The notes under the pieces were generated by a model. That model did not search any database, had not been told where the DNA came from, and saw only the letters and a list, made by a program, of their open reading frames with translations. From a virus, in the IMG/VR virus record IMGVR_UViG_3300028840_002431, positions 172,240-236,239 of that record: DNA of 64,000 nt, one strand, 5' to 3'. Positions 164 through 7,975 of the stretch are shown in pieces (positions within the stretch are counted from its first letter, which is position 1; each line of letters starts with the position of its first letter). The position numbers and the translations under genes were made by a program.

Positions 164-349
164 ATGCTTCCCTGTGACCACGGCCGGTGTGAGGTATGCG
201 AGAAGGTCTACTGGATTCCAGCCGGGGTCGGGCCAAGGTTTTGCTCCTCTGGGTGTTGGGAGTACATGGCCATGGAGTCGTTCCTTAAGGAGTTCCACTA
301 CCTCTCGAACATGAAACTATCTCTCTGGGACCACCTCAGGATAAGTTAG
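164..349 (+). CDS. small zinc-ribbon protein with LWDHL C-terminal tail (family member)
   Basis: ORF track; two CxxC pairs (CDHGRCEVCEK ... FCSSGCWEY); ends KLSLWDHLRIS; SD-like GGGGAG upstream. Confidence 0.55.
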   Translation: MLPCDHGRCEVCEKVYWIPAGVGPRFCSSGCWEYMAMESFLKEFHYLSNMKLSLWDHLRIS

Positions 350-350
350 A

Positions 351-503
351 ATGATCAACTTTCTCTGTAAGCTGGGTTTGCACCGATGGGTTCCGAGCAC
401 CTACCACGACTGGTGTTTTTTTGGGATCAATATCACTTGCGCCCGCTGCCACGAACCACACCCGGCTTATATCACCAGACCTGAGGACGAATGCTCCGAG
501 TAA
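351..503 (+). CDS. small CxxC zinc-finger protein (50 aa)
   Basis: ATG 2 nt after the previous stop; translation MINFLCKLGLHRWVPSTYHDWCFFGINITCARCHEPHPAY...; below the ORF-track size cut-off. Confidence 0.4.
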   Translation: MINFLCKLGLHRWVPSTYHDWCFFGINITCARCHEPHPAYITRPEDECSE

Positions 504-937
504 ATAAAATACTCAAAGACGCCATAGCGGCCGACACAGATAGTCTTAAAAAGGTTATCCGCGACTACAAGGATCAAGACGATCTTGACGACACAGAGAT
601 TGACATCCTTGTCCTCGTTTGCGCTCTGCACCAAGCCAGAGTTGATATGTTCAAGGCTCTGGATGGAAAATTTGCTCTCCACAAGCGGTTAGCCAAGATC
701 GATGTTTCACGTGAAACGCCGGACGGGGCCGCTATCGAGACCGTGTACCTCCCGGCCAATTGTGCCCACATGCGGACAGACGGTGCTCACAGTTATTGCG
801 GTATCCAGAAGGGTGAGCACTTCTGGCCCTCCGAGAAACCACACGATCGCCAGTGGTGCCCCTTCTGTGTGGAAGTGGCCGAGCACCGTGTGCCGCCCCA
901 ATTTCTCCGAGAGACTAAGATTGTTTGGGGCATTTAA
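491..937 (+). CDS. hypothetical protein
   Basis: ORF track, 148 aa, co-directional tight packing. Confidence 0.45.
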   Translation: MLRVNKILKDAIAADTDSLKKVIRDYKDQDDLDDTEIDILVLVCALHQARVDMFKALDGKFALHKRLAKIDVSRETPDGAAIETVYLPANCAHMRTDGAHSYCGIQKGEHFWPSEKPHDRQWCPFCVEVAEHRVPPQFLRETKIVWGI

Positions 938-953
938 CTAACTTGAGGCAGAC

Positions 954-1226
954 ATGTCAGGGAACAAGAAAGACCACGTTGAATTTAACTACTACCCAAA
1001 AGACGCCAGCCCTGGTGACGGGACTTTGCGCCGTACTGTGCTCTTAAAAGATATCGCATCCGTTGACGAAAGAGACAAAAGGACGTGCGTCGTTACCATT
1101 GGGCGCAGAGACAGTACTAATATTTTGGTCAACGAGCCGTACGACTTTGTTATTAAAAGACTTGGTTGGACCAAAAGGATACGGCGTAAGAGGGAGAAGA
1201 AGGGGAAGGAGAACGGGAACCAATGA
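954..1226 (+). CDS. hypothetical protein
   Basis: ORF track, 90 aa, basic C-terminus. Confidence 0.45.
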   Translation: MSGNKKDHVEFNYYPKDASPGDGTLRRTVLLKDIASVDERDKRTCVVTIGRRDSTNILVNEPYDFVIKRLGWTKRIRRKREKKGKENGNQ

Positions 1227-1540
1227 TTTATGTCGCTTTCATGGGATTGGCTGTCATTGCTATTTTAACAACTGTGGCGGCCCACTACTACTCCAAGGCT
1301 TCCAAGTCCGAGGCCGCGCTGAGTGGTATCAAGGCTCAACTAGAACAGGCCGAGAACCAAAGAAAGATCTTCGCGGAGTCCAACCGCCGGATCATCGAAC
1401 AACTCGAAAAGGTCCGTAACATGCTCAAGGAGGGTAAGACCATGAGCACCATCGAATCCGAGTTGGAGCGTATGGAGGAACCGGAAAAGACTCTGTACGA
1501 TCATCTACAAGAGGAACGCCCTCAAGAGGAGCCTTCTTAG
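1223..1540 (+). CDS. membrane-anchored coiled-coil protein with variant tail (LYDHLQEE...)
   Basis: ORF track; N-terminal hydrophobic helix; ATGA start/stop overlap with the upstream gene; tail TLYDHLQEERPQEEPS. Confidence 0.45.
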   Translation: MIYVAFMGLAVIAILTTVAAHYYSKASKSEAALSGIKAQLEQAENQRKIFAESNRRIIEQLEKVRNMLKEGKTMSTIESELERMEEPEKTLYDHLQEERPQEEPS

Positions 1541-1551
1541 TTTTATCAACT

Positions 1552-1740
1552 ATGCCTCTCAACGTCTCTAATATAGAAGCTCAATGGGAAGAGATAAGCG
1601 CCAAGATAAAAAAGCTAGAGGAGACGCACGGGCAGATCAAAATAAACCATGAACGCATCACTGCCCTAGTTGAAAAAATGGCTGCCGAAGAGGCGGCCAA
1701 GCCTAAAAAGACCCTTTGGGACCACCTGAGAGGCAGTTAG
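1552..1740 (+). CDS. LWDHL-tail family small protein
   Basis: ORF track; ends KKTLWDHLRGS. Confidence 0.55.
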   Translation: MPLNVSNIEAQWEEISAKIKKLEETHGQIKINHERITALVEKMAAEEAAKPKKTLWDHLRGS

Positions 1741-1745
1741 TTTTA

Positions 1746-5869: not shown

Positions 5870-6541
5870 ATGCCAACTTGCCAACAGTGTGCCGGGTGGT
5901 TCCCCGTCCAGAATAGATCCTTTGAGCAGTTCTTGTGCCCCGCGTGTTACCAGGATGTGTTGCGTCATCTGGCGGAACGCGCCCGGCAGATCATGGACGT
6001 AAGGCATTGTAGGGTTTGCGGGCGCACTTTGACGGAGTCGTCTCATGTGTGCTCCGCCGACTGTGCTCTAACACTACGCAGAATTATTGCTGACGGTCGT
6101 CAGTTGGTTCAGTACGGCACGCGCACGGACTTTCTTCTCTGGGCCAGAGAACAGGGTGGATGGAGTGAGGACGAAATTACACCTTTCGATCACCCGAGGG
6201 TTTGGGAACAAGACAGAACTGAGGCTCACCGCCTCTTCGATGACTGGGCCGGACGCACCGAAACGAACCCGATCACTCCGGATGTGCGCGTAGAAGAATG
6301 GCCTAACGTCAACATCTGCCACATCTGCCCGGCCCAGAACACGGACATGTGCTCTGCCGAGTGTGAGCACCGGAATCAGATCTTCCAACGTGTAGGCCCT
6401 GTGCCCCCGTCAGGGCCGACCTATCCAGGGGGCCGACCCGACGACAGTCGGCCAACAGACGAACAGGCCGAACTTCTCAAGGCTTTTGAGGATTTGGACA
6501 AACCCGACAAAGACCTCTGGGACCACCTCAAGAAGGAGTGA
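5870..6541 (+). CDS. multi-zinc-ribbon protein with LWDHL tail
   Basis: ORF track 223 aa; repeated CxxC pairs; ends KDLWDHLKKE. Confidence 0.55.
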   Translation: MPTCQQCAGWFPVQNRSFEQFLCPACYQDVLRHLAERARQIMDVRHCRVCGRTLTESSHVCSADCALTLRRIIADGRQLVQYGTRTDFLLWAREQGGWSEDEITPFDHPRVWEQDRTEAHRLFDDWAGRTETNPITPDVRVEEWPNVNICHICPAQNTDMCSAECEHRNQIFQRVGPVPPSGPTYPGGRPDDSRPTDEQAELLKAFEDLDKPDKDLWDHLKKE

Positions 6542-6573
6542 CCCAGCGGTGTAGTATCTGGTAGGGTGTTAGG

Positions 6574-6831
6574 ATGCAGCACCGTTATGATGACGTTCCC
6601 GGCCACGGTAGAGTAGTCTTGAGCCACCACGCTCAGGATCGAGCCGAAGAACAACAGATCACTGACCGTCAAATCGAGGACGTTCTGTTCGAGGGACACG
6701 ACATCCCGGACGGCGACTCTACCTTGAGAGAGTTCAAGGGAATCAGGGTCGTGATCATCACACCGTCCCCATGGAAAGGGGCTAAACTGGTCAAAACCAT
6801 ATACAAGGTCTTGCCAGCGAGGATTCATTGA
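6574..6831 (+). CDS. hypothetical protein
   Basis: ORF track; upstream GTTAGG ATG context. Confidence 0.4.
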   Translation: MQHRYDDVPGHGRVVLSHHAQDRAEEQQITDRQIEDVLFEGHDIPDGDSTLREFKGIRVVIITPSPWKGAKLVKTIYKVLPARIH

Positions 6832-7037
6832 GTAAATTAGGCCCAACAGATAAACACCCCAACGGCAAGCTCAACAAGGACGACGAAGGAGAGATTCGTT
6901 TCGCCGTTGGTTCTCACGATGGTAATGTCATCCTGGACTTCGGTTCACCGGTCGCGTGGGTGGGGATGCCGCCACCGTTGGCCCGCCAACTGGCCGCGAT
7001 GTTGATTCGACACGCCAATGCTATTGAAGGACATTGA
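6828..7037 (+). CDS. hypothetical protein
   Basis: ORF track; overlapping stop/start. Confidence 0.4.
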   Translation: MSKLGPTDKHPNGKLNKDDEGEIRFAVGSHDGNVILDFGSPVAWVGMPPPLARQLAAMLIRHANAIEGH

Positions 7038-7285
7038 TGCCAGACAAGCCGCTTTTGAGTAGGAGGGACGCTTACAGAATCCTTGGGTTCGACGAAAACG
7101 AGCGTTTCCGTAACTACGAGCTTGAGCACGAGCTTGAGAGTCAATGCGATCTGGAAGAAGGCGAGATTATTATAGGCGAATGGTGCCCGTTCAACGGTAT
7201 ATACTGCAAGTTCTTCGACGTAGCTCCGATCAAGGCCCTGGAAGAAGCGAAAAGAAACAGAGAGGGCCGACCCCAAGGAAATTAA
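7034..7285 (+). CDS. hypothetical protein
   Basis: ORF track; overlapping stop/start. Confidence 0.4.
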   Translation: MMPDKPLLSRRDAYRILGFDENERFRNYELEHELESQCDLEEGEIIIGEWCPFNGIYCKFFDVAPIKALEEAKRNREGRPQGN

Positions 7286-7295
7286 CATCCCCGCC

Positions 7296-7430
7296 ATGGT
7301 CAAGAAGATCGACAAAGAGATCGACAGACGAAAGCCTCTGGACCTTTGGGATCATCTACGAGAAAGCCCCGATGAAGGTAAGATCTTCACATCACGTCAA
7401 ATCCGGATGGCCAAGGGGGTACCACAATAA
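7296..7430 (+). CDS. small protein with internal LWDHLRES motif (44 aa)
   Basis: Manual: MVKKIDKEIDRRKPLDLWDHLRESPDEGK...; fills the gap between the 7285 and 7434 genes. Confidence 0.35.
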   Translation: MVKKIDKEIDRRKPLDLWDHLRESPDEGKIFTSRQIRMAKGVPQ

Positions 7431-7433
7431 AAC

Positions 7434-7694
7434 ATGTTCTCCGATGCCGTTGTAAAAGAGGGCCGTCTACTTTTAGAGGCTAAGAACCTCCCTGGTTTTT
7501 ACTCGTGGTGCAAGGCGCATCTCCCACGTTTGAATCAGGCCAAGATCCGGGAGATATTCGACGACCCTCGATTGTGGGAGAAGCAGACAGGGAGTATAGA
7601 TAACCGTCCTCTCAGGTACTACTACGACCTCCTACGCCGGTACAAACGGCTCGTGGAAGCAAAGAACCTCTGGGACCACCTGAGAGGGAACTGA
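7434..7694 (+). CDS. LWDHL-tail family protein
   Basis: ORF track; ends AKNLWDHLRGN. Confidence 0.5.
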   Translation: MFSDAVVKEGRLLLEAKNLPGFYSWCKAHLPRLNQAKIREIFDDPRLWEKQTGSIDNRPLRYYYDLLRRYKRLVEAKNLWDHLRGN

Positions 7695-7975
7695 TGCCCT
7701 TCTGCTACGAGTGTGGGAGAGAATTCGCGGACGGCGGGGGTGTCGTGGTCAACGCGCTCCCCGGAGTCGTTTTTTGCTCAGCTACCTGTGTGGCTGAAAA
7801 CACCCGACCATGGCCCAAATGCGAGGTGTGTGAACAACGGTTTCCCCCAACCACAGGTGTGGGTGGCGACATATGCGACCGATGCTACTCCCGAATTAAT
7901 GTGAGAATAAAGCCCAAGGGCGCTAAGAAGCGCAAAGTGGACAAAAACCTCTGGGACCACCTGAAAGACTCTTAG
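7694..7975 (+). CDS. zinc-ribbon protein with LWDHL tail
   Basis: ORF track; CYECG ... CSATC ... CEVCEQ ... CDRC; ends KNLWDHLKDS. Confidence 0.5.
   Translation: MPFCYECGREFADGGGVVVNALPGVVFCSATCVAENTRPWPKCEVCEQRFPPTTGVGGDICDRCYSRINVRIKPKGAKKRKVDKNLWDHLKDS

Follow-up and report, generated by a model that had tools for sequence, protein, structure and literature searches.

The window analysed here is a stretch of 64,000 nucleotides (nt) from IMG/VR virus record IMGVR_UViG_3300028840_002431 (positions 172,240 to 236,239), part of the roughly 416-kb genome of an uncultured phage which, according to exact-protein look-ups, has been assembled independently from several ENA, JGI and Logan samples. 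The genome corresponds to a contig of 416,380 bp (ENA ERZ27256783 k141_562290), with JGI 3300017963, 3300017991 and 3300018080 and SRR6963352 and SRR6963591 as source samples. The left end of the window is occupied by an array of small co-directional genes, many of which encode the same C-terminal peptide of 8-10 residues, built around Leu-Trp-Asp-His-Leu (LWDHL), shortly before the stop codon. About 94 kb of the genome were examined. Counted on the merged contigs L012 and L011 together with the window, the array is a block of about 19.2 kb that extends from 11.2 kb upstream of window position 1 to window position 7975. It comprises about 69 co-directional small genes, of which about 39 are tailed (35 terminal tails and about four degenerate ones, PLTLWAAL, TLWRAL, TLWRCL and TLWRALK), and the gaps between stop and start codons are mostly -8 to +20 nt. 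The array is a discrete block, because the tails stop abruptly at its upstream edge, with none in the 8.8 kb preceding the first tail gene (a block further left on a 173-kb viral contig). Outside the array carriers are sporadic, at least four in number: three in the window (28775..29221, 59147..59467 and 62208..62642) and one at L129:12567..13022, about 1.7 kb right of the window end, with the tail ANLWDHLTDPQ. More than 40 carriers of the tail, mostly unrelated small proteins, are present in this one huge phage. An earlier, sequence-only reading of the window had described an array of about 20 proteins encoded by consecutive tailed genes. The array exists and its genes are small and co-directional, but the figure was about half the true size, since the array runs 11.2 kb further upstream, and the tailed genes are not strictly consecutive, about 17 of the approximately 29 genes in 164..7975 carrying the tail and about 11 lacking it.

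In a six-frame scan of the window, the pattern L[WY][DEGH][HFAE][LVI] has 21 matches, all on the + strand and all in long open reading frames (ORFs); in 18 of the 21 a stop codon follows 2-10 residues downstream. Two copies are internal, at 5470 and 7344, the latter with 23 residues after it. The DNA word TGGGAYCAYCT occurs 12 times, against 0.20 copies expected from dinucleotide-preserving shuffles (0 of 100 shuffles reach 12), and all 12 copies are located on the + strand and read in the L-W-D-H-L frame. The example tails quoted in the sequence-only reading and its three distal members are all present. The observation of a shared tail is real, highly non-random and larger than first reported.

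The logo of 38 tails reads [KR]-[TSDN]-L-W-D-H-[LVI]-[RK]-[EDG]-x-stop. With the first Leu as position 0, this Leu is invariant (38/38), as is the occupation of position +4 by Leu, Val or Ile (38/38), and Trp at +1 (36/38), His at +3 (34/38) and Asp at +2 (32/38) are nearly so. Position -1 is Thr, Asp, Ser or Asn in 35/38 tails, position -2 is Lys or Arg in 20/38, position +5 is Arg or Lys in 21/38 and position +6 is Glu, Asp or Gly in 25/38. After the motif 1-3 polar residues precede the stop, with a modal motif-to-stop distance of three residues. The linker, taken as the 11 residues before position -1, is enriched in Lys (2.25×) and Pro (1.56×) and depleted in Ile, Trp and Tyr. Thr, Ser, Asp and Asn are preferred N-cap residues of helices, and an Asp at N3 completes the capping box; the tail, with such residues at -1 and Asp at N3, therefore reads as an N-capped helix of two turns. 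Its predicted form is an amphipathic helix with Leu, Trp and Leu on one face, following a flexible linker rich in Lys, Pro and Arg. In low-confidence AlphaFold models, the tail of the 223-amino-acid (aa) carrier at 5870..6541 forms a helix of its own (residues 214-222) after a break at DKPD, and the tail of the carrier at 7434..7694 is likewise helical. A K/P-rich linker followed by a short helix reads as the layout of a docking motif.

Conservation of the tail follows the codon phase, with 1.5-2.0 bits of column information at codon positions 1 and 2 against 0.5-1.1 bits at wobble positions. Across the 38 tails, Asp codons (24 GAC, 8 GAT; p = 0.35) and His codons (23 CAC, 11 CAT; p = 1.0) are used as in the genome background. 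Substitutions in the tail are conservative (L to V/I, D to E, W to Y/F), and the motif-to-stop distance varies from 1 to 10 codons while the word stays in one frame. RNAalifold, applied to the aligned tail regions, finds no consensus structure (0 pairs), and Rfam finds nothing in the array, tRNAs being the only matches. A second run of 28 co-directional small genes on the - strand (window 41604..51106), in which 20 of 27 junctions are 20 nt or shorter, served as a control array; it has no shared C-terminal peptide, its most frequent 3-mer occurring twice versus 29 times in the tail array. Its members include a J-domain (DnaJ) protein of 96 aa. Gene packing as such does not produce the tail, because this equally compact array lacks it, and the tail of 28775..29221 cannot serve a downstream cistron, because the next gene is convergent. 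Strain comparison gives 20 single-nucleotide polymorphisms in the array (6 synonymous, 11 non-synonymous) and none in the motif against 0.4 expected, too few for a ratio of non-synonymous to synonymous rates.

Selection acts mainly on the peptide, and a weaker bias at the mRNA level is superimposed on it. The claim that the peptide rather than a DNA repeat is conserved stands with regard to the codon-phase pattern, the frame lock, the control array and the retention of the tail in a related phage (see below), but synonymous sites are not entirely free. A repeat artefact would show equal conservation in all frames; the word is read in one frame only and its wobble positions are more variable. 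The suggestion that the codons after LWDHL double as ribosome-binding region of the next gene agrees with the data: with junctions as tight as given above, Arg at +5 is encoded by AGG or AGA in 10 of 11 cases, against a background of 0.31 (p = 6e-4). Ten tRNA genes predicted by ARAGORN are located at window 37372..38373 and 52557..57355 (Ile ×2, Glu-CTC, His-GTG, Ser, Pro ×2, Met ×2 and Arg-CCT); Rfam supports seven of the ten and one more at 37750..37848. Among the codons within and right after the tail are those decoded by the His, Arg(AGG) and Glu(GAG) tRNAs.

The bodies of the carriers are diverse. All-against-all comparison of the 38 carriers with their tails removed (BLASTP and phmmer) detects only four paralogue pairs, and 30 of the 38 have nothing detectable in common with any other, so the N-terminal parts are unrelated for most members, as had been proposed. 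Carrier lengths range from 46 to 223 aa and net charges from -11 to +13; 19 of the 38 possess at least one CxxC motif, ten lack Cys, and a simple hydrophobicity scan flags three, two of them with a hydrophobic N-terminus. Pfam searches with ten carriers or array genes return only sub-threshold matches to zinc-ribbon (treble-clef) families and DUF4258, and public pipelines record no Pfam match for any array gene; a PHROGs search covered ten larger ORFs outside the array. The small genes at L131:5538..8392, from an unrelated phage of low GC content, end in sequences of the type YPxxYFEEL. They form an ordinary paralogue family with a common MKFEPGKLY N-terminus and full-length similarity, unlike the tail carriers.

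From left to right in the window (all on the + strand, tails given up to the stop codon), the first carrier is a Cys-rich protein of 61 aa (164..349, tail KLSLWDHLRIS), the LWDHL codons of which (323..337) coincide with a rearrangement breakpoint. A 105-aa carrier with a hydrophobic N-terminus (1223..1540) has the degenerate tail KTLYDHLQEERPQEEPS. It is followed by a 62-aa carrier without Cys (1552..1740, KKTLWDHLRGS), a 99-aa carrier with a variant tail (1746..2045, RNLWGHLME) and a 150-aa carrier (2096..2548, RTLWDHVKET) whose stop codon overlaps the next start (ATGA). The short ORF at 2820..2960, 46 aa from its ATG or 88 aa from a GTG at 2694, ends in the degenerate tail MDLWHFVMEGE and is possibly a decaying member, because public pipelines do not call it. 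The next carrier, of 90 aa (2988..3260), also has a degenerate tail, YSLWHAVMEA, and a sub-threshold match to DUF4258 (E = 0.035). A second match to this family is found in the tail-less gene at 6574..6831 (E = 4e-4); the two are perhaps related, one tagged and the other not.

Four carriers lie close together at 3816..4744: a zinc-ribbon-like protein of 76 aa with four CxxC motifs (3816..4046, VKDLWDHLRIT), proteins of 74 aa (4046..4270, TTLWEHLEVEP) and 66 aa (4272..4472, NKNLWDHLQET), and a 91-aa protein with four CxxC motifs and a Pro/Arg-rich linker (4469..4744, tail NRDLWDHLTEES). The 73-aa carrier at 5221..5442 (RKTLWDHIRES) precedes a 58-aa ORF (5443..5619) with two motifs, KDLWDHLSEPKPD at residues 8-20 and QQLWDHLRGDLGV at its end, which looks like a mini-carrier joined to the following gene through loss of a stop codon. 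The largest carrier, of 223 aa (5870..6541, DKDLWDHLKKE), has sub-threshold treble-clef/zinc-ribbon matches. An uncalled ORF of 44 aa (7296..7430) contains the internal motif PLDLWDHLRES followed by 23 residues and is probably a degenerate or extended member. The array closes with an 86-aa carrier (7434..7694, AKNLWDHLRGN), paralogous to the upstream array gene P0001, and a double-zinc-ribbon-like carrier of 93 aa (7694..7975, DKNLWDHLKDS). Distal carriers in the window are proteins of 148 aa (28775..29221, TTLWDELKG), followed by the convergent gene, 106 aa (59147..59467, ESLWDHLRGD) and 144 aa (62208..62642, or 170 aa from an ATG at 62130; QTLWDHLKL). Internal motifs occur in four ORFs in total, 5443..5619, 7296..7430, L012:6215..7105 and L012:7712..8221, with 23-76 residues after the motif; these ORFs look like carriers fused to the next ORF after stop loss.

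Several further features touch the layout of the array. The repeated word GGTGTA[AG]TA (consensus about cCGGTGTAATATaT) is present in 12 copies against 0.6 expected, all of them intergenic, at window positions 2068, 2973, 6548, 8332, 9275, 22103, 27288, 30153 (- strand), 38796, 53743, 57854 and 62699, each followed after 15-40 nt by a start codon on its own strand. The copy GGTGTAATA at 2068..2076 (+ strand) lies within the array, and those at 2973, 6548 and 8332 lie in or beside it. The word is a candidate phage promoter, which would divide the tail array into several transcription units; scans for sigma-70 promoters and terminators give background level only. At L012:685..2009 (about 10.9-9.6 kb upstream of window position 1) public annotations call two genes of 147 and 294 aa on the - strand. 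These calls are probably wrong, because ORFs on the + strand across the same region end in the tails TTLWDHITNSDGGP and PLTLWGAISDAGRL; the tail serves as an internal marker of the true reading frame where gene callers disagree. A block of about 14 kb (window 321..14288, L001:2628-16595) is inverted relative to its flanks between strains, giving two natural arrangements, each seen in at least two independent assemblies. The inversion junctions (L002:2489-2629 and 16591-16672; L070:13184-13386) are patchworks of 28-64-nt pieces with 1-3 nt of microhomology. In gene 164..349, which the inversion destroys, one breakpoint coincides with the first base of the LWDHL codons, and one Logan contig begins exactly there.

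Searches beyond this genome turned up the tail in a single relative. A word-indexed comparison of the tail profile with 5.8 billion proteins matched only proteins of this phage. When 1.84 billion representatives were searched exhaustively with HMMER, 13 matches reached E <= 1e-3, namely 11 own proteins and two spurious repeat translations, in a search in which a 10-residue motif alone cannot reach significance, so that weak relatives could escape. These profile searches had been proposed in the sequence-only reading and returned nothing besides own proteins and spurious translations. Paired-motif scans of viral, metagenome and genome collections at the DNA level recovered only the same phage (L015/L070); matches in L090/L113 and in Actinomycetota were unrelated. 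Similar DNA is absent from the deposited phage genomes searched, the motif is not mentioned in the literature searched, and searches of viral contigs with the SPFH protein, with protein P0017 (see below) and with their alignment gave no matches. LWDHL tails are also lacking in L131-L138, more distant phages with the neighbouring cREC_REC gene. A profile match in the PDB, NLWDHLQE within aminopeptidase N, is due to chance (E = 2.6).

A search with 28775..29221 found one orthologue, P0017 (59% identity), on the 5.3-kb contig L130, which shows synteny to window 23.5-30.1 kb, with amino-acid identities of 34-78%; the related phage is recorded as JGI 3300041082, contig Ga0452208_173897. P0017 ends in PESQSELTLWQHLKKS (ELTLWQHLKKS) and 28775..29221 in PEGQTTLWDELKG; the tail is kept despite an indel of two residues in the linker. 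A second gene of L130, coding for 97 aa and without homologue in this phage, has the canonical tail KRDKTLWDHLIE (KTLWDHLIE). The tag is a feature of the lineage, borne by different carriers, because P0017 keeps the tail and a gene present only in L130 carries one.

Other genes in the syntenic region and beyond are of accessory interest. A papain-like cysteine peptidase (Peptidase_C1/C39_2) at 23020..23787 has a counterpart with 78% identity in the related phage. The 259-aa protein of 25288..26067 (+ strand), without Pfam match, ends in EDNDIPF, and its homologue at L130:1322..1849 (41% identity) in DDYDDIPF. Both endings are similar to the C-terminal tip of bacterial single-stranded DNA-binding protein (SSB), and the protein may represent mimicry of the SSB tail or a divergent phage SSB. 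Right of the window, at L129:14446..18802, are accessory genes for a PolX-type polymerase, a patatin and an AcrVA2-like protein. The J-domain protein, an SPFH/Band_7 protein and cREC_REC are also among the genes of the examined 94 kb.

Taken together, the in-frame conservation, the helical layout and the diversity of the bodies suggest that the tail is probably a portable, lineage-specific C-terminal address, that is, a docking motif for one receptor. One receptor would recognise the tail helix and thereby gather diverse small proteins at one place or machine. The two or three codons after the motif double as ribosome-binding site of the next gene. Several points weigh against this reading. 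Conservation of the tail is drawn from one relative and two genes. No receptor was recognised among the genes of the 94 kb, and neither were genes for a capsid, a prohead protease, a clamp or an unfoldase. The clustering of about 39 carriers in one 19-kb block also fits local duplication, and more than 40 clients for one site would be unusual if the partner were a target under modulation rather than a sorting machine. Both AlphaFold models show a helical tail, but at low confidence (mean predicted local distance difference test scores of 68 and 52). Codon choice is a further point: the first Leu is CTC in 27/38 tails (background 0.29; 0 of 200,000 simulations as extreme), 35/38 have a pyrimidine as wobble base at position -1, and CTG encodes the last Leu in 14/29 (p = 0.003). 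Synonymous sites are not fully free, so some constraint on mRNA or DNA, or gene conversion among tails, also operates. Codon-pair context explains the CTC bias only partly, with CTC in 15 of 39 Leu-Trp pairs outside the tails; it might also stem from gene conversion between tails or from a weak coupling hairpin that some of them form. A CCUCU/AGAGG hairpin sequestering the Shine-Dalgarno (SD) sequence does form in some members, but not consistently, pairing being no better than with alternative Leu codons (Wilcoxon p = 0.46). The Leu-codon bias leaves room for a minor contribution at the nucleic-acid level alongside selection on the peptide.

Among the other explanations, shared descent has the most in its favour. 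Tandem duplication of one small gene could have left a family with diverged bodies in which the tail is the last conserved part, maybe for structural reasons; four paralogue pairs are detectable, about 39 members sit in one 19-kb block, and the biases towards CTC and towards pyrimidine at -1 could be residual ancestry or gene conversion. Yet 30 of the 38 carriers share nothing detectable, and their sizes (46-223 aa) and types (Cys-rich zinc-ribbon-like, Cys-free helical, with hydrophobic N-terminus) differ widely, while the true paralogue family of L131 is similar over its whole length. The distal carriers lie in unrelated neighbourhoods, and the related phage bears the tail on a gene that this phage lacks. 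Nor are the tails recent copies, because their Asp and His wobble sites are at equilibrium. Common descent is unlikely as an account of the whole; even if correct, conservation of the tail only would still imply a tail-specific function, and paralogy may be the origin of some members, not of tail-only conservation.

Three further alternatives place the function in the nucleic acid or in the act of translation. If the nucleotides were an mRNA element that aids translation of the downstream gene, as a ribosome-binding or standby site or as an SD-hiding hairpin, peptide conservation would be secondary; the purine-rich codons after the motif with AGR for Arg in 10/11, the tight junctions (mostly -8 to +20 nt), the preference for CTC (27/38) and for a pyrimidine at the -1 wobble, and the CCUCU/AGAGG hairpin of some members all point that way. 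An mRNA element, however, does not fit the 3-nt periodicity of variability with its free Asp and His wobble sites, the conservative amino-acid substitutions, or the 12/12 DNA words in one frame at 1-10 codons from the stop; a consensus structure is absent, pairing in the hairpin does not exceed that with other Leu codons (p = 0.46), the control array does without the motif, and 28775..29221 has no downstream gene at all. This makes an mRNA element very unlikely as the explanation of the tail. We find it just as improbable that the word is a 15-20-nt recombination site at the boundary of DNA cassettes by which small genes are shuffled or captured, like attC or short homology boxes. The promoter-poor array of co-directional small ORFs is what one might expect of cassettes, one strain rearrangement has its breakpoint at base 1 of a word coding for LWDHL, and recombination could have homogenised the Leu codons; but that rearrangement joins no two tails and shows only 1-3 nt of microhomology, inverted repeats or hairpins are absent and no integrase was recognised nearby, the motif is frame-locked and varies by codon phase, and the tail persists on scattered single genes and on the orthologue in the relative. 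Least probable of all is an effect of the nascent peptide, in which the last residues, still in the exit tunnel, would slow termination and favour re-initiation on the next gene. The nearness of the motif to the stop (modal distance three residues) and the many overlapping junctions would suit it; the spread of that distance over 1-10 residues, the four internal instances, the tailed gene 28775..29221 with no gene downstream, and the control array, equally tightly coupled without the motif, do not.

If the tail is indeed a docking motif for one receptor, a machine that handles the carriers (by sorting, loading or degrading them) is likelier than a target that they modulate, given how many and how diverse the clients are. 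Among the candidate roles, loading into the procapsid so that the carriers are co-injected, by analogy with the capsid-targeting sequence (CTS) of phage T4, comes first, although taken singly it is less likely than not. Docking on a ring-shaped or DNA-bound hub, for example a phage sliding clamp as in the case of the T4 gp43 and gp55 tails, appears less likely again, and timed proteolysis and import into a phage-made compartment or onto a membrane are both rather improbable; other partners account for the remainder. A more ambitious version, which is quite conceivable and which we put forward tentatively, is a hitherto undescribed sorting system: one receptor would read the TLWDHL helical tag and route more than 40 unrelated effectors to one destination. 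This might be the inside of the capsid, from which they would be injected along with the DNA, or else a compartment or replication hub made by the phage, and new effectors would be recruited by gaining about 30 nt of tail-coding sequence. Should the tail be an address tag, more than 40 co-targeted phage proteins of opaque function would be defined in one step, and the 10-residue peptide would offer a direct handle for finding the receptor. The receptor in turn would show how a huge phage organises its large arsenal, made up of small and fast-evolving proteins, and recruits new members, and the tail itself might be put to use as a small, transferable tag with which cargo is loaded or localised.

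The tail matches no described family and is apparently undescribed. The statement of the sequence-only reading to this effect is right in that there is no significant Pfam or Rfam match and no genuine profile match outside this phage, but phage precedents for shared terminal tags do exist, in the CTS of T4 and in the tails of T4 proteins that bind gp45. In T4, the CTS is a short terminal peptide that alone is common to diverse internal proteins and directs them to one destination (PMC3012670). The genes of its carriers (IPI, IPII, IPIII) are located in variable, accessory parts of the genome, a further likeness. The differences are that the CTS is N-terminal, whereas in all 38 of 38 terminal carriers only 1-10 residues separate the LWDHL tag from the C-terminus, that the two have no sequence similarity, and that CTS carriers are a handful against more than 40 here. 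In T4 the CTS is removed by the prohead protease.

The gp45-binding tails of T4 and RB69 (gp43, gp55, gp33) likewise place the same short peptide on unrelated proteins, 0-4 residues from the C-terminus, for docking on one hub. They resemble the LWDHL tail in a preceding Ser or Thr, in often basic residues and in their content of Leu, aromatic residues and Asp; read from the genomes, T4 gp43 ends in KASLDFLFG, T4 gp55 in SPSLDFLYEAND and RB69 gp43 in KKASLFDMFDF. Scored with the matrix of the 38 tails, four verified clamp tails reach -2.7 to -6.3 (empirical p = 0.07-0.25), like random C-termini; for the phage's own tails the score is mostly at least 15, the three degenerate ones falling below 0. 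LWDHL is hence not a clamp tail of the S-L-D-F-L-[FY] or S-L-F-D-M-F type: the register is different and the scores are not significant. T4 has about three clamp-tail clients compared with more than 40 carriers here, and Pfam matches for about 94 kb of the roughly 416-kb genome include no clamp family. The bacterial beta-clamp motif (QL[SD]LF or QLxLxL) is also rejected, Gln preceding the first Leu in 1/38 tails and the equivalent of Leu-4 being Asp in 32/38.

Encapsulin cargo is loaded through a C-terminal peptide after a flexible linker into a shell of the HK97 fold related to phage capsids (PMC8229669). LWDHL is similarly C-terminal, after a K/P-rich linker poor in hydrophobic residues; its logo bears no resemblance to encapsulin peptides, and no shell gene is found among the neighbours. 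Encapsulin peptides are rich in Gly, Ser and Leu, and encapsulins usually load one or a few cargo types. The SSB tip (DDDIPF) is again a C-terminal docking peptide on a flexible tail, but there one protein serves many partners, in contrast to the many tagged proteins and presumably single partner here. C-terminal docking peptides are in use in this lineage, because the proteins of 25288..26067 and its L130 homologue end in EDNDIPF and DDYDDIPF. Other candidates were discarded. Integron attC cassettes do not fit, with 0 RNAalifold pairs, no integrase family among the neighbours and an element that is coding and frame-locked, and neither does a degron of the ssrA/ClpX type, the tail ending in polar or charged residues (S, E, D, T, G) at a motif-to-end distance that varies from 1 to 10. 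The likeness to the W-x-x-L LC3-interacting motif of eukaryotes is probably due to chance, the flanks here being basic and no LC3-type partner being known in bacteria. The CTS of T4 and the clamp tails of T4 and RB69 are the closest precedents, as analogues and not as relatives. As a terminal peptide shared by unrelated phage proteins, the LWDHL tail stands out by its sequence, its scale and its place at the C-terminus.

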